Shown here piece by piece: positions 2,100 to 25,502 of a stretch of DNA of 64,000 nucleotides; position 1 is the first letter of the stretch, and the number at the start of each line of letters is the position of its first letter. The position numbers and the translations under genes were made by a program. The notes below the pieces were generated by a model. The model did not search any database and was not told where the DNA came from. It saw only the letters and a list, made by a program, of their open reading frames with translations. The stretch comes from Candidatus Methylomirabilota bacterium (GTDB taxonomy: Bacteria; Methylomirabilota; Methylomirabilia; Rokubacteriales; CSP1-6). Location of the stretch: positions 695-64,694 of the forward strand of contig DASRHC010000011.1 in the NCBI GenBank assembly GCA_035650715.1, read 5' to 3'.

Positions 2100-3269
2100 T
2101 CAGGCGGCGCGCCCCGCCGGTCCCCGGGGCGCGCCGCCGGCACCGCCCCGCGAGGCGACGTCGGGGAGCCCCCGGAGCGCCAGGACGTGGGTGATGTCCT
2201 TGAGGGAGAGGTAGCCTACCAGGCGGGAATCGCTCAGCACCGCGAGGCGGCCGACCTCGTTCCGGGTCGCCTTGCCGAGCGCGTCGAACACCGGATCATC
2301 CGGGTCGATCACCAGGTCGTCGGTCACGGGCTTCATGATCTCGCTCACGCGGCGCTGCGTCCGTTCCTCGGGCGGCACCGCGTGGACCTGCTGCACGCTC
2401 GCGATCCCGCGGACCCCGGCGCCGTCCACGACGGGGAAGCTGGTCACGTGATGCGCCCAGAAGGCGTCCGCGAGCTGCGCCACGGTCGCGTCGATGGGCA
2501 CGGTGACCACGTCGCGGGTCATGATGTCCCGCACCCGGAGCCGTGAGAGGGCGTCCCGCAGCGCCATCTGCGAATAGCTCGCGTCCGCGGCGCCCCGGAG
2601 GAACATGCCGATGATGATGAACCAGACACCTCCCAGCACCTCGCCGCCGAAGATCTGAAGCATGCCGAGCGCCATGAGGCCGAACGCGAAACCGACCCCC
2701 ACGCGGCTCGCCAGGTAGGTGGCCCGAGGCAGGGTGCCCGTCCACTTCCAGACGATGGCCCGCAGGACGCGCCCGCCGTCGAGCGGGAACCCCGGGACGA
2801 GATTGAAGATCCCGACGACGACGTTCACCAGCACCAGATAGGCGACCACCGCCTGCGCCCACGCGGGTCGCACGAGCCCGCCCGCGTCGGCGGCCCACAG
2901 CACCGCCGCGACGGCGAAGCTCGTGATGGGGCCGACCACCGCGATCAGGAACTCGGCGCGCGGGGTGGGGGGCTCGTCCTCGAGGTGGGACACGCCGCCG
3001 AAGACGTGCAGGGTGATGCCGCGGACCGAGAGCCCGTGCGCGATCGCCACGAACGAATGGGACAGCTCGTGCAGCAGGACCGAGACGAAGAGCAGGAGCG
3101 CGGCCAGCAACCCGTTGGCCCAGTAGGCGGCGACGGGCCGGTCGGGCAGGACGTTCGGGAAGTACCCGACCGCGAGGGTCCACGTGATCAGCCCGTAGAC
3201 CACGAGCCAGCTGGCGTGGACCTTGATCGGGATACCGCGAATCGCGAGGACGCGGACTGTGCTGTCCAT
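2100..3269 (-). CDS. site-2 protease family zinc metalloprotease (peptidase M50) with tandem CBS domains
   Basis: HELSH HExxH motif in a multi-TM N-terminal region, LDGG motif, and a C-terminal CBS pair (RDVVTVPIDATVAQ..., VGYLSLKDI). Confidence 0.85.
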   Translation of the reverse strand: MDSTVRVLAIRGIPIKVHASWLVVYGLITWTLAVGYFPNVLPDRPVAAYWANGLLAALLLFVSVLLHELSHSFVAIAHGLSVRGITLHVFGGVSHLEDEPPTPRAEFLIAVVGPITSFAVAAVLWAADAGGLVRPAWAQAVVAYLVLVNVVVGIFNLVPGFPLDGGRVLRAIVWKWTGTLPRATYLASRVGVGFAFGLMALGMLQIFGGEVLGGVWFIIIGMFLRGAADASYSQMALRDALSRLRVRDIMTRDVVTVPIDATVAQLADAFWAHHVTSFPVVDGAGVRGIASVQQVHAVPPEERTQRRVSEIMKPVTDDLVIDPDDPVFDALGKATRNEVGRLAVLSDSRLVGYLSLKDITHVLALRGLPDVASRGGAGGAPRGPAGRAA

Positions 3270-3297
3270 GGCTCACGGAGCCTCCGCCGCGGCCGGC

Positions 3298-3904
3298 TCA
3301 CGCGCGGCGCGGCGCATCGTGTACATGTCGTCCCCGAATCCTTTGTGCGGGAAGGCGGTTGCCCGCGTAGGCCGACACCGCCCCGAACCGCGCGTGGGCC
3401 TCCTCCCAGTCGCGCCGCGCCTCGGCGATCTCGTCGGGCGTGCGCGCCACGAAGTTCCACCACATCAGGATCCGCTCGCGGAACGGCTCGCCGCCGATCA
3501 GCATCAGGCGCGCGCCGGCGCGCAGCCGGAGGGGCGGCTGCTCCCGGCCGGCTTCCCCGGCCGGCGGTCATCAGATTCAGCTGACCCGGTCTGATCAGCT
3601 GCTCGGAGCCCAGGCTGTCCTTGTGCAGGACTTCACCGGCGAGCAGCCAGGTCACGGTCTGCAATCCGATGTGCGGGTGCGGGGCGACGTCCATCGGCTT
3701 GCCGGTGTCGAACGCGAGCGGACCGAAGTGATCCAGAAAGCACCACGGCCCCACCAGCCGCCGCTCGCCCCGGGGCAGCGCCCGGTGCACCACGAGGCCG
3801 CCGCCGAGATCGGCCGCGCGGGCCGGGTACGCCGTCATCGACGGCGTCGACGCCGCGTCGGCCTCGCACGGCAGCGCCTCCGGCGAGGGGAGCGGATTGC
3901 TCAT
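3298..3904 (-). pseudogene. pirin family protein, apparent frameshift (two ORF pieces 3504..3904 and 3298..3504 in different frames)
   Basis: N-terminal piece MSNPLPSPE...RALPRGERRLVGPWCFLDHFGP...HPHIGLQTVTWLLAGEVLHKDSLGSE...LNLMTAGRG then degenerates to RGSRPGAAAPP. The pirin C-terminal motif ...ERILMWWNFVARTPDEIAEARRDWEE continues in another frame. Shift lies near 3520-3560 in a GC homopolymer-like tract. Confidence 0.6.
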
Positions 3905-3917
3905 GGCCGGACCGCGC

Positions 3918-5579
3918 CTAGTAGCCCATCGCGGCGCCGTCCCCCCGCGGATCCGCGCCGCCCTCGAACAGGCCGCTCTCGTGGTGGACGCGAATCGCCT
4001 GGGCGTGGCCGAGCGCGCTGTCCCACTGACCGACCATCCGGACCGGCTGCCCGCGCCGACGCAGCTCGCGCGCGGTGGCATCCGAGATCCGGCCCTCGAG
4101 CCAGAGGTCGCGCGACTCCCGGCCCCAGGTGCGGCCCATCAGCCAGCGCGGCGCCTCGATCGCCTGCTGGACGTCGTAGCCGAAGTCGACCAGGCGGGTG
4201 AGCACCGCGGCCTGCGTCTGCGGCTGGCCTTCGCCGCCCATGGTGCCGTAGGCCAGGAGCGGCCTCCCCTCTTGCAGCAGCATGGCCGGGATGATGGTGT
4301 GAAACGTCCGCTTGCCGGGCTCGAGCCGGTTCGGGTGGTTGTCGTCCAGCGAGAAGAAGCTGCCCCGGTTCTGCATGATGATGCCGGTGTCGCCGCCCAT
4401 GACGACGGCTCCGAAATCGTGGTAGATCGACTGGATGGTGGACACGACGAGCCCGCTCGCGTCGGTGGCGCAGAGATAGACCGTGCCGCCGTCGGGACTG
4501 CGGCGGGTGAAGGTGGGCCCGTACCGCATCCCGGGCTCGACCAGGCCGACGAGGAGTGAGCGCGTCGGGCGGATCAGCCTGCGGCGCGTGGCCGCGTAGT
4601 CCTTGGACAGCAGGCGGTCGAGCGGGATGTCGACGAAGGCGGGGTCCGTCAGCCATTCGTCGCGGTCGGCGAGCGCGACCTTCACCGCCTCCACCATGTG
4701 GTGATAGTAGTCGGCGGTGCCGTCACCCCAGGCCGAGACGTCGAAGCCTTCGATGAGGTTCAGGATCTGCAGCGCCGCGAAGCCCTGGGTGCTGGGCGGC
4801 ATCTGCACCACGTCGTGTCCGCGATAGGTGGTCGAGATCGGCTCGACCCACCGCGCGTGATAGGCGGCGAAGTCCTCCGGAGTGAGCGGGGAGCCCGCGG
4901 GAGCGAGCGCCCGGCAGATGCGCTGGGCGACCGGTCCCTCGTAGAACGCCCCGCGGGCGCCGGATGCGGCCAGCAGCTCGAGCGTGTCGGCCAGCGCGGG
5001 CTGGACCAGGCGAGCGCCCTCTCGCGGCGCGGTGCCGTCGGGCAGGAAGACGCGGGCGGTGTCGGGAAAATCGTGAAGGATCGATTCATCCGCGACGATC
5101 CAGTCCGCCAGCGAGCGGGGAATGGCGATGCCGTCGCGCGCGTACTCGATGGCGTCGGCAAACAGGCTCGCCCAGGGGAGCCGGCCGTGGCGCTCGTGCG
5201 CGAGCCGCCAGCCGTCGACCGCCCCCGGCGTCGTGAGCGCGGCGAGCGGGCCGCGAGGGGGGATCTGGCCGGCGCAGCCGTGTTCCCGGTAGTAGTCTCG
5301 CGTGGCGCGGCGGGCGGCGGGTCCTTGAGCCTCGAGCGCCTGGACGCCGGCGATGTGGGGTCCCGCGATGAGCCAGAAGCCGTCGCCGCCCAGGCCCGCC
5401 ATGTGCGGATAGGCGACGCAGAGGGTCGCGTTCGCCGCGATCGCCGCGTCGACCGCGCTGCCGCCGCGGCGCAGCGCCTCGAGCCCGGATGCGGAGGCGA
5501 GGTAGTGCGGCGTGCTCACCATGCCCCGCGCGGCAAAGACGGGAGGCCGCCCGGTGGTGGGCCCGTTCGGATGACTCAT
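3918..5579 (-). CDS. ggt: gamma-glutamyltranspeptidase
   Basis: MSHPNGPTTGRPPVFAARGMVSTPHYLASASGLEAL... full-length GGT-like (ca. 553 aa) with TVYLCATDASG and GGDTGIIMQNRG motifs. Start chosen at MSHPNG (track residue 26). Confidence 0.85.
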   Translation of the reverse strand: MSHPNGPTTGRPPVFAARGMVSTPHYLASASGLEALRRGGSAVDAAIAANATLCVAYPHMAGLGGDGFWLIAGPHIAGVQALEAQGPAARRATRDYYREHGCAGQIPPRGPLAALTTPGAVDGWRLAHERHGRLPWASLFADAIEYARDGIAIPRSLADWIVADESILHDFPDTARVFLPDGTAPREGARLVQPALADTLELLAASGARGAFYEGPVAQRICRALAPAGSPLTPEDFAAYHARWVEPISTTYRGHDVVQMPPSTQGFAALQILNLIEGFDVSAWGDGTADYYHHMVEAVKVALADRDEWLTDPAFVDIPLDRLLSKDYAATRRRLIRPTRSLLVGLVEPGMRYGPTFTRRSPDGGTVYLCATDASGLVVSTIQSIYHDFGAVVMGGDTGIIMQNRGSFFSLDDNHPNRLEPGKRTFHTIIPAMLLQEGRPLLAYGTMGGEGQPQTQAAVLTRLVDFGYDVQQAIEAPRWLMGRTWGRESRDLWLEGRISDATARELRRRGQPVRMVGQWDSALGHAQAIRVHHESGLFEGGADPRGDGAAMGY

Positions 5580-5769
5580 CGCGACCTCGCGGGTGGGATC
5601 AGGAACGACGCGCCAGGATGGCCGAATCGACTCACCGTGGCGGTGAGCGACCACGGCGAGGCTATATTGGCGCCCGCGTGGCTGTCAAGCATGAGCCGGC
5701 ATCGCGCGAGGAGGCGCCCATACTGCGGGATGCCATGGGCCGCCGTGTGATCGACCGGGAGCGGATAGA

Positions 5770-6729
5770 GTGCTGAGCGTCGACGCCGCCCTCGGGTCCT
5801 ACGGCTATCCGGCGATCTTCGCCGGGATGGCGCTGGAGCAGTTCGTGCCGCCGATGCCGGGGGAGCCCCTCCTCCTCGCGGCGGGCGCGGTGGCGGGAGC
5901 CGGCCATCTGGGACTGGGATGGGCGGTGATCTGCGCGCTGCTGGGGACGCTCCTGGGCGACATCCTGTGGTACGAGATCGGCCGCCGCGGCGGCCGACCC
6001 GTCCTGCGGTGGCTGTGCCGCATCGCGATCGAGCCCGACAGCTGCGTGCGACGAGGCGAGGAGGGGTTCTCGCGCAGCGGCGCGAGCGTGCTGCTCGTCG
6101 CGAAGTTCTTGCCGGGGCTGAACAGCGTGGGGCAGCCGCTGGCGGGCGCGCTCGGCATGCCGAGAGGCCGCTTCCTCTTCTTCGACGCGCTGGGCGCGGC
6201 GCTGTGGGTCGGGGTCTACGTGGGGCTCGGCTACGCGTTTCACGACCAGCTCGCCCGGGCGGTCGCTCTCGCCGGACGGCTGGGCGGAATGGCGGTGTGG
6301 CTCCTGGCGGGTCTCGCCGCGCTGTACCTGGGCGTCAAGGTGCTGCGTCGCCGGCTGTTCCTGCGCCGGCTGCGGATCGGGCGCATCACGCCCGAGGAGC
6401 TGCTGCGGATGCTCGCCGCCGGCGAGCCGGTGCTCATCGTCGACCTGCGGCACGAGCTCGACGTTCGGGCCGATCCGACGGCGATTCCCGGCGCGATCCA
6501 GATGACGCCGGCCGAGCTGGAGCAGGCCCGGCCCGTCCTCCCGCGCGACCGCGACGTGGTGCTGTACTGCTCGTGACCCAACGAGGCCACGAGCGCCCGG
6601 GCGGCGCTCCTGTTGCGCAGACACGGAGTCTCGCGCATCCGACCGCTGGCCGGCGGCTTCCCGGCCTGGCGCGAGCGCGGGTTCCCGGTGGAGCCGCTCG
6701 CCGTCCGGCCCGCGCGGGCGGCGGGATGA
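5770..6729 (+). CDS. DedA/SNARE-associated membrane domain fused to C-terminal rhodanese domain; in-frame TGA at 6574-6576 at the catalytic Cys position (candidate Sec codon, or a broken gene)
   Basis: Track ORF 5770..6576 ends ...RDVVLYCS*. The same frame continues for 50 more codons to a TGA at about 6727-6729: PNEATSARAALLLRRHGVSRIRPLAGGFPAWRERGFPVEPLAVRPARAAG. These are the rhodanese active-site loop and C-terminal helix. The segment U-PNEATS-ARAALLLRRHG aligns residue-for-residue with GlpE [19 protein letters not shown]. Confidence 0.6.
6591..6609 (+). promoter_or_regulatory. GC-rich hairpin 15 nt downstream of the in-frame TGA (candidate bacterial SECIS element)
   Basis: gagcgcc-cgggc-ggcgctc forms a 7-bp perfect stem with a G-rich 5-nt apical loop. 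Loop Gs sit 26-28 nt from the U of UGA. Extra pairing is possible at the base (ca/tg). Confidence 0.35.
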
Positions 6730-6743
6730 GGTGCCGCGGCCCC

Positions 6744-7979
6744 TCAGGCCACGCCCACGAGGTATCCGAAGCGCTTGACGAACTCGGACTCCGTCATGTT
6801 GGCGGCCCGCGCGAGCGCCTCCCGCCGCTCGGGCTGCTCGAAGTCCTCGCGCTTGAGGCGGATCATGTACGCCTCGAGGGTGCGGTACGCCTCCGAGTGG
6901 ATGTCCGCGTAGCGAACGCGGATCTTGCCGGTCGTGGGATCCAGGAGATTCCCGAACGGAATCGGGACGAGCCGGCCGCCCTGGATGGTGGCCAGCGCCT
7001 CGCTGCCGCCGTCGAGCAGGAAGCACGTCGCCCAGTAGCCGAGGCTCCGGCAGTACTGGATGTCGAACCCGCCGGGCGGGGCGCAGCGGAGCTCGTAGCC
7101 GAGATCCTTGGCCACGATACCGGTCTCGATCCCCCGCGCGGCCAGGCTCGCGGTCACCTGCGTCTTGAGCAGTCCCGCCAGCTCCAGCTCCTGCAGGCGC
7201 ACGTTGCCGTAGGCGTCGCGGGCCACCGTGCCCAGCGTCTGCGGGTCGAGCTTCACGAGGAGACCCTCGGCGAGGAGCGCGACGCCGTGGTCCCGGCCGT
7301 GGACCAGCCGCTTGATGATCGCCCCTTCGAGGATGTCCGCCAGCCGCTGGATGGGCACGTGGGTCTCCGGGAACTCCTCGGCGACCACGGTGAGGGTCGC
7401 CCCGGCGGCCCCGCCGATGCCCAGCGCCAGGTGCCCGGCGTGGCGGCCCATCACGGTCACGAAGAACCACTTGCCGGTCGTGGCCGCGTCCTTCATGAGA
7501 TTGCGGACGAGCTGCATGCCCAGATCCACCGCGGTGGTGAAGCCGAAGGTCGGGATCTCGGGCGGCAGCGGCAGGTCGTTGTCGATGGTCTTGGGGACGT
7601 GGACCACCGCCATCCGGCCGCCGGCCGCGCGAGCCACGCGTGACGCCGCGAAGGCGGTGTCGTCGCCGCCGATGGTGAGCAGGTACGAGACGTCGAGACG
7701 GCGCAGCGATTCGACGACGTGCCGGAGGGCCTCCGGCGACCGGGTGGGGTTCGCGCGGGCCGTGCGCAGGATCGAGCCGCCCTCGAAGTGGATCTGGGAC
7801 AGCGCCCCGATCTCCAGCTCGTGCACGCGGGAGAGGTCGCCCTGCATGAGCCACTTGAAGCCGTCCTCGCAGCCGAGCACCCGGAGGCCGCGGTTGCGGG
7901 CCTCGATGGTGGCGGCCGCGATGACCGCGTTGATGCCCGGCGCCGGGCCGCCGCCCACCAGGATCGCGAGCGTCTTCAT
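6744..7979 (-). CDS. pfp: 6-phosphofructokinase, PPi-dependent type (GGDDT and PKTIDND signatures)
   Basis: MKTLAILVGGGPAPGINAVI...TIGGDDTAF...VVHVPKTIDNDL...MGRHAGHLAL. Asp in GGDD and Lys in KTIDND are the classical PPi-PFK discriminators (ATP-PFK has GGDG/GTIDND). Confidence 0.85.
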   Translation of the reverse strand: MKTLAILVGGGPAPGINAVIAAATIEARNRGLRVLGCEDGFKWLMQGDLSRVHELEIGALSQIHFEGGSILRTARANPTRSPEALRHVVESLRRLDVSYLLTIGGDDTAFAASRVARAAGGRMAVVHVPKTIDNDLPLPPEIPTFGFTTAVDLGMQLVRNLMKDAATTGKWFFVTVMGRHAGHLALGIGGAAGATLTVVAEEFPETHVPIQRLADILEGAIIKRLVHGRDHGVALLAEGLLVKLDPQTLGTVARDAYGNVRLQELELAGLLKTQVTASLAARGIETGIVAKDLGYELRCAPPGGFDIQYCRSLGYWATCFLLDGGSEALATIQGGRLVPIPFGNLLDPTTGKIRVRYADIHSEAYRTLEAYMIRLKREDFEQPERREALARAANMTESEFVKRFGYLVGVA

Positions 7980-12157: not shown

Positions 12158-12607
12158 ATGATCCGGGTGAAGCGGGTCTACGAGAAGCCGTCCCCCGCGG
12201 ACGGCCTGCGAGTGCTGGTCGATCGCCTGTGGCCGCGCGGCCTGTCGAAGCAGCGGGCCGCGGTGGACGTGTGGCTGAAGGACGTGGCCCCGAGCCCCGA
12301 GCTGCGCAAGTGGTTCGGCCACGACCCGGCCCGATGGAAGGAGTTCCAGTCGCGCTACCGGAAGGAGCTCCGCGCGCAGAAGGAGGCGCTGGGGCGGCTC
12401 CGGCGGGAAAGCAGGACGCGGACCGTCACCCTGCTCTACGGGGCGCGGGACGAGGAGCACAACGGGGCCCTCGTCCTGAAGGAGGTCCTCGAAGACCCCG
12501 CGATCTGCTGGGCGAGCCGAGGGTCTCACGCGCACGCGAGGGGCGCGCGGTACACTCCGGGTGTCCCGCGCGCACCCGCGTGGGACACGCAGGATGACAT
12601 GGCATGA
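12158..12607 (+). CDS. DUF488 family protein
   Basis: [46 protein letters not shown]...RYRKEL is the DUF488 signature. AGGAGAG RBS. Its stop overlaps the copA ATG (ATGA). Confidence 0.7.
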
Positions 12608-14967
12608 GCCAGCGAGGCGACGAATCCGTGGCGTCGGCCACGTCGAAGGACCCCGTGTGCGGCATGGATGCGGGTCCGGCCGACGCGCCGGGCGGCAGCG
12701 CCGAGCACGCGGGGACGACGTACTGGTTCTGTAGCCCGGTCTGCCGGCAGCGGTTCGCGGCGGACCCGAGCCGCTACGTCGGCGCCCCGTCGCCCCCTCC
12801 GGCGTCGGCGCCCCCTTCCGCGTCGCCGCCCGCGCCGGCGGTGACCGGGCATCGCGTCTACACCTGCCCGATGCACCCCCAGATCGTTCGCGACGGGCCG
12901 GGCGGCTGCCCGATCTGCGGGATGGCGCTCGAGCCGCTGCTGGCCACCGCGGAAGAGGGCCCCGATCCCGAGCTGGTCGACATGACCCGCCGATTCTGGA
13001 TCGGGCTCGTGCTGGCGCTCCCGTTGCTCGTTCTCGCGATGAGCGACATGCTGCCCGGCGAGCCGCTCCGGCGTCTGCTGTCCGGCCGGGCCCTCGCCTG
13101 GCTGCAGGCCGTCCTCGCCACCCCGGTCGTGCTGTGGGCGGGCCGGCCCTTCCTCGTCCGCGGCTGGGCCTCGATCGTCCATCGCAGCCTGAACATGTTC
13201 ACGTTGATCGCCATCGGGACCGGCACCGCCTACGTGTACAGCCTGGTCGCGACGGTGGCCCCCGGCCTCTTCCCGGCTTCGTTCCGGACCCACGGCGGCG
13301 AGATCGGCCTCTACTTCGAGGCCGCCGCGGTGATCACGGTGCTGGTGCTGCTCGGTCAGGTCCTGGAGCTCCGGGCGCGCAGCCGGACGAGCAGCGCCAT
13401 CCGGGCCCTGCTGAACCTCGCGCCTCCGACCGCCCGACGCCTTCGCGCCGACGACACCGAGGAGGACGTGCCCCTCGAGGTGGTGCAGGTCGGCGACCGC
13501 CTGCGCGTCCGCCCCGGGGAGCGGATCCCGGTCGACGGCGTGGTCCTGGACGGCGCGAGCGCGGTCGACGAGTCGATGATCACGGGCGAGCCGATCCCGG
13601 TGGAGAAGACGGCGGGCAGCCCGCTGTCCGGGGGCACCGTGAACGGCCTCGGCAGCCTCATCATGCGCGCGGAGCGCGTCGGCAGCGATACCCTGCTCGC
13701 GCGCATCGTCCAGATGGTGAGCGAGGCGCAGCGGACGCGGGCTCCGATCCAGCGGCTCGCCGATCAGGTGTCGGCCTGGTTCGTGCCGGCGGTGGTCGTC
13801 GCGGCGGTGCTGACGTTCATCGGATGGAGCCTCTGGGGACCGGAGCCGCGCTTCGCCTACGGGCTGGTGAACGCGGTGGCGGTGCTGATCATCGCCTGTC
13901 CGTGCGCCCTGGGCCTGGCGACGCCCATGTCGATCATGGTGGGCACCGGGCGCGGCGCGATGGCCGGCGTGCTGATCAGGAACGCGGAGGCGCTGGAGGT
14001 GATGGAGCGGGTCGACACGCTGATCGTCGACAAGACGGGCACCCTCACCGAGGGGAGGCCGCGCCTCGTCGCGGTGAAGCCGGCGCCCGGGCAGGACGAG
14101 GCGTCCGTGCTCCGGTACGCGGCGAGCCTGGAGCGCGGGAGCGAGCATCCGCTCGCCGCGGCGATCCTCGCCGGCGCGGCGGAGCGCGGGATCACCCCGC
14201 CGGCCCCGGAGGAGTTCCGATCCGAGACCGGGAAGGGCATCGTGGGCCGCGTCGGGAGCCGGGCCGTCGCGCTCGGCAATGCCCGGCTCATGGAGGATCT
14301 GGGCGTGGCGGTCGGGGCGCTGGCGGCCCAGGCCGAAACCCTGCGGGAGGACGGTCAGACCGTGGTGTTCGTCGCGGTCGAGGGGCGGCCGGCCGGGATC
14401 GTGGCCGTCGCCGACCCGATCAAGTCATCCACGGCGGACGCCATCGCCGCGCTGCACCGCGCGGGGCTCGATATCGTCATGGTGAGCGGCGACAGCCGGC
14501 GCACGGCGACCGCGGTCGCCCGCACGCTGCGCATCGATCGCGTGGAGGCGGAGGTGCTGCCGGAGGACAAGAGCCGCGTCGTGCAGGCCCTCCAGAAGGA
14601 CGGCCGGCGGGTGGCGATGGCGGGGGACGGGGTCAACGACGCGCCCGCGCTGGCCCAGGCCGACGTCGGGATCGCCATGGGGACGGGGACCGACGTGGCG
14701 ATCCAGAGCGCGGGGATCACGCTGGTGAAGGGCGATCTCCGCGGCATCGTCCGCGCCCGGCACCTGAGCCGCGCCACCATGCGGAACATCCGCCAGAACC
14801 TCTTCTTCGCGTTCGTGTACAACGCGCTCGGCGTCCCGCTCGCGGCCGGGGTCCTGTACCCGGTGCTGGGCATTCTCCTGAGCCCCATCATCGCCAGCGC
14901 CGCGATGACGTTCAGCTCGGTCTCGGTCATCGCCAACGCGCTGCGGCTCCGGCGCGTGCCGCTCTGA
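12604..14967 (+). CDS. copA: copper-translocating P1B-type ATPase with N-terminal YHS/TRASH-like and CPxH..CPxC metal-binding motifs
   Basis: DPVCGM...[12 protein letters not shown] (YHS), then YTCPMHPQI...CPICGM. TM region with the CPC motif (IIACPCALG), [17 protein letters not shown]. Confidence 0.9.
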
Positions 14968-22539: not shown

Positions 22540-24192
22540 TCAGGCCGCGAACTTCATGCGGCAGAAGCAGGAGGCCTTCACCGGCACCTCGGACCGGGCC
22601 AGGGCGAGATCGAGGCGCTGCTTGATCAGCGGGGCCTCCACGGTCTCGCCGCGGCGGGTGAGGCATTCGTGGAGCCCGTGCAGGCTCCACAGGTTGTCGG
22701 GATGCTGGCAGGCGCGGCTCAGCGTGCCGTCGAGGCCCAGGTCCGAGCGGTAGACCGCCTCCGCCTCCGCGACCCGGCCCTGCTCCAGGAGCAGGGCCCC
22801 CAGGGCGTGTCGGGTCGGCTGCATCCAGCCCCACGGCTCGTCGTAGGGCAGGGCGTCGTCCAGCTCCACCGACCGGCGCAGGTGCGCGAAGGCGATCTCG
22901 TGGTTGCCGCGGCGGTACTCGAGCTCGCCGTCGAGCATCGCGTGCGCGATCTCCAGCAGGTCCCGGACGGTGTTGTTGTGGACCCGCCGGCTCTCCGGGA
23001 CCCGCGCCTTCGCCTCGATGAAGGCGGCCCGCGAGGCCTCGGCCGCCGCGATGTGACCGAGCGCGGAGTGGGCGACGGTCTGCGCGTAGAGCATCATGGC
23101 GGTGGTCGCGCAGTAGAGGTCCCGGTCCCGCGGCAACTCCTGCGCGAGGATCTCGTGCCACTTGCCGAAGCGGATGAGGACGTGCTGCTTCATCGGCAGG
23201 TAGCCCTCCACGAAGTCGGCCATGGGCGGCGAGGGGATGCGCAGGAGATCCTCCGGCGTGGTGTCGATCAGCTCCTGGGCCGCGGCCAGCGCGGGCGTGT
23301 ACTGACCGAGGAACATCGCGCCGTAGATCGCGAAGTGGTAGTCGTGGGTGCGGTAGAGCGCGTAGACGTTCAGCGCTCCCTCGCGCGCCAGGAACTTTCG
23401 GTCGGCCACGATGGCCTTCTGGTTGTAGACCAGCACGTCGCGATAGTGCCCGCACAGCACGTCCAGGTGGGTCGGCATGTGGATGAGGTGGCCCGCGTCC
23501 GGCACCAGATCCCGCAGCCGGTCCCCCGCCCGCAGGGCGCGCTGCGGAAACGGCGACATCTCCATCAGGTGGACGTACAGATGGAGGAGCCCCGGATGGT
23601 CCCACGCGGCCGGGAAATCGCGGAAGGCGCTCTCCAGGACGTCCATCGCCTCCAGCGTGCCCGCGCCGTCGGCCACGCGGCCGGTCTTGAGGTCCCACAT
23701 CTTCCAGGGGGTCAGGTTCATGATCGATTCCACGAACACCTCCCGCACCTCGAGGTCGTCGCGGTGGGCGTGGAACACGCGGCGCATGGCGTCCGCGTAG
23801 GCGGCGTCCCACGGCGCCTGGTCCTCGATCGGCTCCCGCTGCGGGTACCGCGCGGGCAGCGCGCGGATCAGCGCCTGCTCGACCGGGCTCGCGCGCTCCG
23901 CGCGGGCGAGGGCGGCCTGCATCGCGTCGTATGCGGCGGCGAGGGCGGCGGCCTTGCCGGCCGGGTCGTAGAGGTGCCACGGCAGGTTGTAGTTCGGGCC
24001 GGCCGCGTAGGCGATGCCCCAGTAGGCCATGGCGCAGTCGGGGTCGTGCTCCAGCGCCCTCTTGAAGCAGGTGATGGCCTCGGCGTGGTTGAACCCGTAG
24101 AGCCAGTTGAGCCCGCGGTCGAACCAGAGCTGGGCGTCCGGGGCGGCGGTGGTGATCTTCCGAGTGTAGGAGCCGAGGTCGTAGTACGGCAT
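22540..24192 (-). CDS. TPR-like repeat protein, conserved hypothetical (550 aa)
   Basis: MPYYDLGSYTRKITT...AQLWFDRGLNWLYGFNHAEAITCFKRALEHDPDCAMAYWGIAYAAGPNYN... is all-helical and repeat-like. No enzymatic motif recognised. Confidence 0.6.
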   Translation of the reverse strand: MPYYDLGSYTRKITTAAPDAQLWFDRGLNWLYGFNHAEAITCFKRALEHDPDCAMAYWGIAYAAGPNYNLPWHLYDPAGKAAALAAAYDAMQAALARAERASPVEQALIRALPARYPQREPIEDQAPWDAAYADAMRRVFHAHRDDLEVREVFVESIMNLTPWKMWDLKTGRVADGAGTLEAMDVLESAFRDFPAAWDHPGLLHLYVHLMEMSPFPQRALRAGDRLRDLVPDAGHLIHMPTHLDVLCGHYRDVLVYNQKAIVADRKFLAREGALNVYALYRTHDYHFAIYGAMFLGQYTPALAAAQELIDTTPEDLLRIPSPPMADFVEGYLPMKQHVLIRFGKWHEILAQELPRDRDLYCATTAMMLYAQTVAHSALGHIAAAEASRAAFIEAKARVPESRRVHNNTVRDLLEIAHAMLDGELEYRRGNHEIAFAHLRRSVELDDALPYDEPWGWMQPTRHALGALLLEQGRVAEAEAVYRSDLGLDGTLSRACQHPDNLWSLHGLHECLTRRGETVEAPLIKQRLDLALARSEVPVKASCFCRMKFAA

Positions 24193-24258
24193 GACAGTCT
24201 CCTTGGCGGCGGCGGGCCGGCGGGGCCGCGGCCGGGTGAAGCGCGGACGATCAGTCCA

Positions 24259-25368
24259 TCAGTCGTAGTTGCCGTTGTTCGGGCCGTGCCACCTTCCGCG
24301 ATTGAGATCCACCCGCATGCCGACGGCCGTGAAGGGCAGGCGGAGGTTGTCGCCGAAGACGTGGAGCGCGTAGCCCCACCAGGTGCTCCGGGGCACCCTG
24401 AGGTCGAACAGGATCTGCTGCACGTTGAGCCCCACCTCGAAGCCGAGCTGCCGCTGCTGCTCGATGGCCGGGGTGACCCGGTAGCCCTTGGCACCGTACG
24501 TAACCGAGAAGAGCAGCCAGCGCAAGGGGCCGAGGTTGACGCCCAGGCGGCGAGCGAGACCGGAGAACTTGAAATCGGCGGAGTACACGTCGTGGGTGTA
24601 GCTCGAGCTGGGCAGGTGCGAGGTGCGCATGCTGAAGAGGTCCCGGGTGTGGGTCACCGAGACCAGCCCCGCGGCCAGCGCGCCCGCGGAGTCCATGGCC
24701 AGATCCTCCCACGAGAATCCGTGCCGCGTGACGCCGTCGCTCAGCTCGTTCGCGAGCCCGGTGGCGATCGCCAGGCCGACGCCGGCCAGGATCGCCTTGT
24801 TCTCCGAGTAGCCGATCATCTTGTAGGCGTCCTCGAGCAGGCTGGCGGTGACGTAGTAGTCGGTGAGGTGCGACGCCTTGTCCGCGCCGCCGTTGGTGGT
24901 GTCCTTGCCGAACCAGCCCTCCTCGTGGACCCGGAAGGAATGATTGGTGTTGTACGCGACGAGCGAGTTCGCGGTGACCGCCCCGATCGAGGTGATCGGG
25001 AGGAGGACCGAGAAGAGCGTCTGGTGGCGCTCGAGGAACGACCACCGGGGCACCTCGGTCTCGGCCCGATCGAAGCGGGGATCGAACCACGACGCGGGCG
25101 TCGACCGCTCGGGATCCCGGTCCTGGTTCAGGGCGAGGCTGGACCAGGGCTGCGCGAGCGCCAGCCTCTGCTCCGATCCCAGCCACCGCTCGGCCTCCAG
25201 GGACCGGTCCGGCAGCAGATGGTAGGGCGACTCGCCGGCCGGCCCCGCCGGTGCCTCGTCCGCGGACAGGGAGAACGGCCGCCCCCCGCGGTCCTGCGCG
25301 AGGAGGGGGCCGGCGCCCACGAGCATCAGCAGCCAGCAGAGGGCGAGCGAGCGGGTGGCTGGTCGCAC
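24259..25368 (-). CDS. exported hypothetical protein (signal peptide)
   Basis: MRPATRSLALCWLLMLVGAGPLLAQ signal peptide. C-terminal beta-rich region. No family recognised. 66 nt upstream of the TPR gene on the same strand. Confidence 0.55.
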   Translation of the reverse strand: MRPATRSLALCWLLMLVGAGPLLAQDRGGRPFSLSADEAPAGPAGESPYHLLPDRSLEAERWLGSEQRLALAQPWSSLALNQDRDPERSTPASWFDPRFDRAETEVPRWSFLERHQTLFSVLLPITSIGAVTANSLVAYNTNHSFRVHEEGWFGKDTTNGGADKASHLTDYYVTASLLEDAYKMIGYSENKAILAGVGLAIATGLANELSDGVTRHGFSWEDLAMDSAGALAAGLVSVTHTRDLFSMRTSHLPSSSYTHDVYSADFKFSGLARRLGVNLGPLRWLLFSVTYGAKGYRVTPAIEQQRQLGFEVGLNVQQILFDLRVPRSTWWGYALHVFGDNLRLPFTAVGMRVDLNRGRWHGPNNGNYD

Positions 25369-25502
25369 GGATCGACGACATCCTACGCCATGGACCGCGG
25401 AAAGCGGGCCGAAATTTGCCGTCGCCTTGACAGGCCGCCGGGCAAGGCCGTATCAGGTCCGTACGCGCGATCCGGGCTCGCGCCCGGGACGGGAGGACGA
25501 TC

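Follow-up and report, generated by a model that had tools for sequence, protein, structure and literature searches.

Can a UGA codon at the active site of a rhodanese domain be read as an amino acid? The question is raised by a gene in a 64,000-nucleotide stretch of DNA from a Candidatus Methylomirabilota bacterium (contig DASRHC010000011.1, positions 695 to 64,694, called the window below). In the protein that this gene encodes, a C-terminal rhodanese domain is fused to a DedA/VTT membrane domain, and the reading frame is interrupted by a single in-frame TGA (6574-6576). An earlier note, made from the letters of the window, proposed that this TGA encodes selenocysteine (Sec) and that a hairpin downstream of it is a bacterial selenocysteine insertion sequence (bSECIS). 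The comparison with homologues described here supports that proposal: with a probability of about 0.88, the UGA is read as selenocysteine in an intact selenoprotein gene, whose product would be a membrane protein of 319 amino acids.

The gene layout given in the earlier note is correct. The coordinates of the TGA, of the 50 codons that follow and of the natural stop were all confirmed, and both Pfam domains score above their cutoffs in the 319-residue read-through product, the DedA match (PF09335) spanning 122 of the 123 profile positions. The rhodanese domain is placed after the last transmembrane helix and a basic stretch, KVLRRRLFLRRLRIGR. The local peptide around the TGA reads VVLYCS-*-PNEATSARAALLLRRHG, and the hairpin is found where it was announced, at 6591-6609 (GAGCGCC-CGGGC-GGCGCUC), 14 nucleotides after the UGA. 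The GTG start codon agrees with the N-termini of the homologues and with the 268-residue entries of the databases. The features are listed in Table 1.

Conservation of the UGA codon in homologous genes

Homologues were searched with a protein query in which a cysteine was placed at the TGA position. More than 100 distinct clusters (at 90% identity) were found at 60-82% identity, and nearly all of these proteins are 267-269 residues long and cover 84% of the query. The C-terminus is covered by none of the best 120 matches above 56% identity. Full-length relatives, of 322-335 residues, appear only at about 53-55% identity and carry a cysteine. The cluster of the window protein itself includes NCBI entry HZP35795.1, a 268-residue 'VTT domain-containing protein [Methylomirabilota bacterium]'.

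DNA from 80 genome loci, 80 metagenome loci and the window was then used to read the codon that corresponds to the TGA, and it could be determined in 157 of these 161 sequences. It is TGA in 48 loci, TGC in 61, TGT in 47 and another codon in one. The close orthologues carry TGA, and the more distant ones carry Cys. The TGA loci correspond to 29 unique 120-nucleotide stretches, which come from two phyla: TGA forms are present in metagenome-assembled genomes (MAGs) of Candidatus Rokubacteria/Methylomirabilota (L001-L004) and in many soil contigs, and a separate group is present in MAGs of Bryobacterales (Acidobacteriota; L017, L019, L021, L023 and L029). The distribution, 48 TGA vs 108 TGC or TGT at the same column, does not bear out a simple truncation of the gene, and a sequencing error is excluded, as dozens of independent assemblies have this TGA.

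In each of the 47 TGA loci that reach the next stop, a further 47-59 codons can be read past the TGA. The peptide encoded there is conserved in the TGA forms (PNEATSAR[V/A]ALLLR..G...IRPLAGGF.AW...). When 33 unique TGA forms were compared over the first 44 downstream codons, 25 first, 23 second and 40 third codon positions proved variable, and conserved residues use several synonymous codons (three for P23, four for G27 and four for A30). Taken together, the conserved peptide, the third-position variation and the synonymous codon use indicate that the stretch is translated and under purifying selection. Judging from these codons, the DedA-rhodanese homologues form a conserved Sec/Cys pair, not a truncation.

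Some details of this survey concern individual genomes. One Rokubacteria MAG, isolate AR27, contains two different copies of the TGA form (L002 and L003, on QHSQ01000581.1 and QHSQ01000243.1), which may be either paralogues or the trace of mixed strains in the bin. A 268-residue TGA-type entry (P0037) bears the NCBI label Gemmatimonadaceae, whereas in L015, L016 and L033, genome loci from that family, the gene is of the Cys type (46% identity). Either the Sec form extends to a third phylum or the contig was placed in the wrong bin.

The active site of the rhodanese domain

The TGA had been claimed to occupy the position of the catalytic cysteine, and this assignment stands. The BLASTP alignment with Escherichia coli GlpE is ungapped and matches the TGA column with the catalytic Cys65 (an alignment taken as a lead), and 108 loci have TGC or TGT at that column. 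The HMMER alignment to a solved rhodanese, 6mxv, also puts the UGA column on the catalytic cysteine, and those to 3tp9 and 2hhg opened a two-residue gap and aligned the preceding cysteine instead. The ungapped alignment yields the six-residue loop length of the sulfurtransferase-type rhodaneses. An AlphaFold2 model was made of a Cys-type homologue, P0113 (predicted local distance difference test score 80, predicted template modelling score 0.71); its rhodanese part matches solved single-domain sulfurtransferases with a root-mean-square deviation of 1.7-2.6 Å.

Four chalcogen positions are invariant in all 135 unique members of the family, Sec-type and Cys-type together: C83 and C92 in the DedA part (both Cys in 135/135), and C267 (135/135) and C/U269 in the rhodanese part. 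The C-x8-C motif is not known to be a general feature of DedA proteins. The invariance of C83 and C92 suggests that they may be a second redox pair, working with C267 and U269.

The hairpin downstream of the UGA codon

The published rules for bSECIS elements ask for a loop of 3-9 nucleotides, a stem of 4-16 base pairs, a distance of 16-37 nucleotides from the UGA to the loop and a minimum free energy (MFE) of -7.5 kcal/mol or below; a G must be among the first two positions of the loop, followed by G or U. The hairpin of the window has a 5-nucleotide loop, a 7-base-pair stem, a loop that starts 21 nucleotides after the UGA and an MFE of -13.5 kcal/mol, all of which lie within these limits. The loop variants among the Sec forms are CGGGC, CGGGU and CGUGU. 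The bSECIS proposed in the earlier note agrees with every published rule, and the hairpin is maintained specifically in the TGA forms.

The significance of the hairpin comes from the comparison with other sequences and not from the folding of a single one. RNAalifold, applied to an alignment of the 29 unique TGA forms (60 nucleotides from the TGA), returned the same 7-base-pair hairpin as the consensus (columns 18-24 with 30-36, -12.6 kcal/mol), with 97.4% of the cells paired and the hairpin conserved in 29/29. Five of the pairs are invariant, a C-to-U change turns one into a wobble pair, and in two sequences (L029 and L117) both bases of the outer pair have changed in a compensatory way, from G:C to C:G.

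The codons of the hairpin hardly vary among the Sec forms: Ser+6 is AGC in 32 of 33, Ala+7 is GCC and Ala+10 is GCG in 33/33, and Arg+8 is CGG in 30 and CGT in 3. Outside the hairpin, four-fold or six-fold degenerate codons were taken for comparison (Pro+1, Ala+4, Leu+13, Gly+17, Pro+23, Gly+26, Gly+27 and Ala+30), and they use three to five synonyms each; codon entropy inside vs outside the hairpin differs with p = 0.004 (Mann-Whitney). The codons of Ala+7 and Ala+10 use all four synonyms in 99 unique Cys forms. All seven pairs are formed in 24 of the 29 Sec forms vs 3 of the 99 Cys forms, and the mean local MFE is -12.8 kcal/mol in the former vs -7.3 kcal/mol in the latter. Cys forms in which the peptide is likewise TSARVAL have no more than 5-6 pairs, and in the Cys-type fusions the hairpin is mostly degraded, to 3-5 of the 7 pairs. 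The freezing of synonymous sites is stronger evidence than covariation, and these comparisons show selection for the RNA hairpin in the UGA forms only.

The core of the hairpin, AGCGCCCG[G/T]GCGGCGCT, occurs 51 times in about 1 Mb of related loci, and 49 of these occurrences lie 15 nucleotides after the TGA of this gene. It is kept exactly in two Cys-type loci (L152:1120-1160 and L155:4769-4810), where it may be either a relic of a former SECIS or a pre-adaptation. At Rfam gathering scores, nothing was found in the window, and at E <= 10 the region of the hairpin gave noise only; Rfam has no models of bacterial SECIS elements.

Genetic code and selenocysteine decoding

TGA is the ordinary stop codon of 21 of the 32 other genes of the window, which indicates the standard code, without reassignment. 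The genes that end with TGA include some with full-length profile matches, such as phosphofructokinase (407/407) and AcnA (885/888, to the end of the model). A scan of the window for a second TGA that is read through in a coding sequence gave no convincing candidate. A single TGA (24259-24261, minus strand) parts two long open reading frames (ORFs) that lie in the same frame (...GPNNGNYD*WTDRPRF...), one with a YfiM-like domain (24259-25452) and the other with tetratricopeptide repeats (22540-24258). No evidence for Sec from a cysteine column was found at this site, and the two ORFs are probably two adjacent genes.

The related loci provide a negative control for the assignment of Sec. A sulfite-oxidase-like gene of L105 contains an in-frame TGA at position 2342 (plus strand; LFLPG*EGNMSVKWL), where the nearly identical contigs L101, L102, L103 and L120 have TGG (Trp). 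By this comparison, the TGA of L105 is a strain-level nonsense mutation or an error.

A gene on contig L089 is a probable second selenoprotein gene, as judged from its codons and RNA. This rhodanese-MoeB gene lies about 260 nucleotides from the DedA-rhodanese gene, on that contig only, and has an in-frame TGA at a conserved cysteine of MoeB/ThiF (GLVPS-*-SEAGVLG). A hairpin, CCUGGG-CGUGCU-CCCAGG, starts at nucleotide 18 from the U of the UGA and its loop begins with CGU, a geometry that is the same as that of the DedA-rhodanese hairpin. MoeB is a catalogued selenoprotein family.

According to a 2026 review (PMC13188914), a Methylomirabilota MAG is predicted to have 63 selenoprotein genes, the largest bacterial selenoproteome reported. 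Sec-type group 4 hydrogenases occur in both Methylomirabilota and Acidobacteriota, and about 90% of the genomes with Sec-type genes carry selABCD, one missing gene being allowed (2026 study, PMC13582414). The Sec trait is thus supported at the level of the lineage only, by the literature and by the MoeB gene of L089.

Alternative explanations

If translation ended at 6576, whether by recent Cys-to-stop pseudogenisation, the alternative considered in the earlier note, or by real truncation, the product would be a 268-residue DedA protein with a dead, partial rhodanese domain. This is what every gene caller and NCBI annotate (268 residues, 'VTT domain-containing protein'), and some truncated product is likely to be made anyway, since the decoding of Sec is never fully efficient. 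However, the TGA is common to two phyla and to sequences down to about 60% identity, the 50 downstream codons stay open and evolve as coding sequence, and the synonymous sites of the hairpin are frozen, whereas the real nonsense mutation of L105 is absent from its siblings. The shared TGA, the open coding-like frame and the frozen hairpin sites contradict pseudogenisation, and a truncated gene is very improbable. An artefact of assembly or sequencing, or a genome-wide reassignment of TGA to sense, has nothing in its favor beyond the single TGA itself; its probability is negligible, considering that about 47 loci, from metagenomes and MAGs obtained independently, have the TGA and that TGA ends 21 of 32 window genes, some of which have profile alignments to the end of the model.

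A last alternative retains the hairpin and changes the amino acid: the UGA could be recoded, in a SECIS-dependent manner, as cysteine by a SelC*-type tRNA (tRNA-ReC) delivered by SelB, which would give a C-x-C form of the product. A 2026 paper reports SelC*-type tRNAs in a minority of the genomes with Sec-type genes and notes that a UGA with a downstream SECIS may in that case be read as Cys. The same paper finds tRNA-ReC in about 2% of the non-UXXU Sec-type genomes, however, and decoding as Cys would give a UGA with a constrained hairpin no benefit over a plain TGC, although the TGA is kept across two phyla. Cysteine insertion is therefore improbable.

Several observations nevertheless weigh against the reading of the gene as a selenoprotein gene and against the function proposed for its product below. 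Taken alone, the hairpin is only marginally unusual for a G+C content of 72%: single-sequence shuffles gave z = -1.9 over 23 nucleotides, 8 of 200 folding as well, and z = -1.0 over 67 nucleotides, and the z-score was judged too weak to count as evidence. Because the stem hardly varies, true covariation is limited to one pair. Neither the selA, selB and selD genes nor tRNA-Sec were found in the 64 kb of the window or in the related loci (about 1 Mb), which says little because the window and the loci are a small fraction of the genomes. When the genuine E. coli SelA, SelB and SelD were used as tblastn queries on the window and these loci, only a weak GTPase-like match resulted. ARAGORN found no tRNA-Sec in the window or in any of the loci (and no tRNA at all in the window), and no sel gene is present among the approximately 40 window genes annotated with NCBIfam and Pfam. 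No conserved operon context that would point to a substrate was found in the related loci, and the putative chalcogen relay is drawn only from the identity of the domains and the invariant cysteines.

Comparison with known proteins

The best NCBIfam match of the rhodanese domain is rhodanese_LYCAU (NF041203), also called 'rhodanese-like form 3', a C-x-U family predicted by Zhang & Gladyshev and included in the 2022 and 2026 selenoproteome reviews (2026: PMC13188914). The window protein shares with it the rhodanese fold, a Sec at the column of the catalytic cysteine and a Cys two residues upstream (L-Y-C-x-U); the motif is L-Y-C-S-U in the window protein and L-Y-C-T-U in the Bryobacterales forms. 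The score of 78 bits (profile positions 20-125 of 126) is below the curated cutoff of 115, and the window protein is therefore not a member of this equivalog. The known family is free-standing and has about 126 residues, whereas here the domain is C-terminal to a DedA/VTT membrane part of about 200 residues, which adds two further invariant cysteines.

TsoB (NF045694; Haft & Tolstoy 2025) is listed in the 2026 review as a rhodanese/DsbD fusion-like selenoprotein (PMC13188914). Like the window protein, it has a Sec-rhodanese fused to a polytopic membrane domain, and it has a presumed thiol relay. However, its membrane partner is DsbD-like and not DedA, and its motif is UxxxxU, with two Sec. The TsoB model matches only the rhodanese part of the window protein, with 22.6 bits vs a cutoff of 805.

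The Cys-type DedA-rhodanese fusions have the same architecture, the invariant C83, C92 and C267 and the PNE motif, but TGC or TGT at the catalytic column. They are orthologues or paralogues with 40-55% identity, from Acidobacteriota, Verrucomicrobiota, Gemmatimonadota and Proteobacteria, and are annotated as 'membrane protein DedA with SNARE-associated domain/rhodanese-related sulfurtransferase'. E. coli GlpE, PspE and YgaP resemble the rhodanese part by their fold and six-residue active-site loop (U-PNEAT vs C-YHGNS), but they have Cys instead of Sec, no upstream Cys and no DedA domain; YgaP is also membrane-anchored, but by a simple two-helix anchor. With the DedA family (YqjA/YghB, UptA and the Cupriavidus/Ralstonia DedA), the window protein shares the usual conserved acidic and basic residues of the VTT/DedA domain. 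The functionally studied members differ in that they have no rhodanese domain, and the scores of the window protein are below the NCBIfam cutoffs for UptA (NF052604, 60.6 vs 250 bits) and for E. coli DedA (37.9 vs 236 bits).

Neither DedA nor VTT was found in the 2026 selenoprotein catalogue or in the deep-Sep paper, and a literature search found no publication that joins DedA, rhodanese and selenoprotein. Since Sec at the C-x-U site of a rhodanese is already known, we rate the DedA fusion architecture and the family as new, but see no new principle in them.

In the databases, more than 100 clusters from Methylomirabilota and Acidobacteriota of soil appear as 268-residue 'VTT/DedA' proteins, which are devoid of the catalytic residue and of the last third of the rhodanese fold; recognition of the Sec codon would correct these entries and enlarge the bacterial selenoproteome by a family or a fusion architecture. 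Integral-membrane selenoproteins are few, and DedA proteins are still poorly understood. The combination of a DedA domain, a Sec-rhodanese and four invariant Cys/Sec residues would give a testable handle on the role of some DedA proteins. The interleaved Sec and Cys forms would also provide a clean case from nature of a SECIS located within a coding sequence, with synonymous sites that are frozen in the former and relaxed in the latter.

Proposed mechanism

During translation, the UGA at 6574-6576 would be decoded as selenocysteine, and the hairpin, which lies within the coding sequence, would act as a bSECIS that recruits SelB-GTP-Sec-tRNA(Sec). The predicted product is a 319-residue inner-membrane DedA/VTT protein with a C-terminal rhodanese domain. 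Arginine-rich stretches precede both the C-x8-C segment and the rhodanese domain, and by the positive-inside rule both are thus probably cytoplasmic. Sec269 would be the catalytic nucleophile, in the motif C267-x-U269. It may take a sulfane sulfur or a selenium atom, or form a selenenylsulfide with C267, and the C-x-U pair could thus exist as a selenenylsulfide or carry a persulfide or perselenide. This pair might exchange an atom or reducing equivalents with the invariant C83/C92 pair on the DedA domain, which is a plausible relay partner of the rhodanese. Chalcogen (S/Se) transfer or redox sensing would then be coupled to the membrane activity of the DedA domain.

We propose, with low confidence, that the protein is a membrane-coupled module for sulfur/selenium transfer or redox reactions; by analogy with the UptA-type DedA proteins, the DedA domain could equally move lipid. 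The membrane-tethered sulfur/selenium trafficking suggested in the earlier note is likewise speculative. A more specific proposal is that of an uncatalogued family of integral-membrane selenoproteins in which a relay through C83, C92, C267 and U269 couples a DedA-type transporter to the activation of sulfur or selenium. This is doubtful. If it were true, imported selenite or thiosulfate could for example be trapped at the membrane in the form of a persulfide or selenotrisulfide. Selenite uptake has been linked to DedA through a mutant of Ralstonia metallidurans, and such a relay would give a molecular basis to this reported link.

Evolution and gene neighborhood

In a rough neighbor-joining tree of the 135 unique family members, the Sec forms fall into three groups. 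A large clade, of Methylomirabilota type, has 32 sequences; a second group has four sequences from Bryobacterales and is closest to a Cys form from Bryobacteraceae; the third is the sequence of L019, which groups alone with Cys forms. On this tree, switches between Sec and Cys evidently occurred more than once.

Table 1. Features of the DedA-rhodanese gene and of its surroundings (window coordinates, except for the gene on contig L089).
Feature	Position	Strand	Details
Proposed selenoprotein gene, complete	5770..6729	+	319 codons with the Sec-UGA counted, then the stop; begins with GTG at 5770
Shine-Dalgarno-like GGGAG	5757..5761	+	8 nt 5' of the GTG; from sequence, putative function
DedA/VTT membrane domain, residues 30-155	5857..6234	+	Pfam PF09335, 69.1 bits vs cutoff 33.9
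C83-x8-C92 motif (LCRxxxEPDxCVRR)	6016..6045	+	Arginine-rich extramembrane segment of the DedA part
Rhodanese domain, residues 207-302	6388..6675	+	Pfam PF00581, 45 bits vs cutoff 22.2
C267-S268-U269 motif, TGC TCG TGA	6568..6576	+	Homologue codon comparison and GlpE alignment
In-frame TGA, proposed Sec codon	6574-6576	+	Catalytic-Cys column
Post-UGA stretch, 50 sense codons	6577..6726	+	Active-site loop PNEATS, next helix and C-terminal third of the rhodanese fold
Proposed bacterial SECIS hairpin	6591..6609	+	7-bp stem GAGCGCC/GGCGCUC, 5-nt loop CGGGC
True stop TGA	6727..6729	+	Convergent PPi-phosphofructokinase gene ends 15 nt away
Gamma-glutamyltransferase, divergent neighbor	3918-5654	-	
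PPi (pyrophosphate)-phosphofructokinase, convergent neighbor	6744-7979	-	
Rhodanese-MoeB gene, related contig	L089:2313-3677	-	NF006444, 532.6 bits vs cutoff 449 on read-through

The G+C content of the window is about 71-72%. The DedA-rhodanese gene stands alone between the genes for gamma-glutamyltransferase and PPi-phosphofructokinase, and these neighbors are common to the closest contigs only. The genes that recur upstream of the Sec-type genes encode pirin (16 loci) and a phospholipase D (PLD)-like protein (14 loci), neither of which indicates a substrate. An intact pirin gene lies directly upstream of the Sec-type gene, on the same strand, in the 16 related loci (e.g., L102:2830-3948). 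The pirin-like gene of the window (3188-3900, minus strand) looks disrupted: its N- and C-terminal parts are in different frames and the middle of the fold is apparently missing. In L108 (2166-3944, plus strand) and 13 other Sec-type loci, the gene immediately upstream, on the same strand, is PLD-like (PLDc_2, cardiolipin-synthase-type), which may hint at a membrane-lipid connection of the DedA part.

Elsewhere, the window encodes a copper nitrite reductase, NirK (TIGR02376; 32736-34328, minus strand), with a C-terminal cytochrome c domain, as well as CopA (12598-14967), AcnA, class I fructose-bisphosphate aldolase and the PPi-phosphofructokinase; these genes, nirK included, are ordinary.

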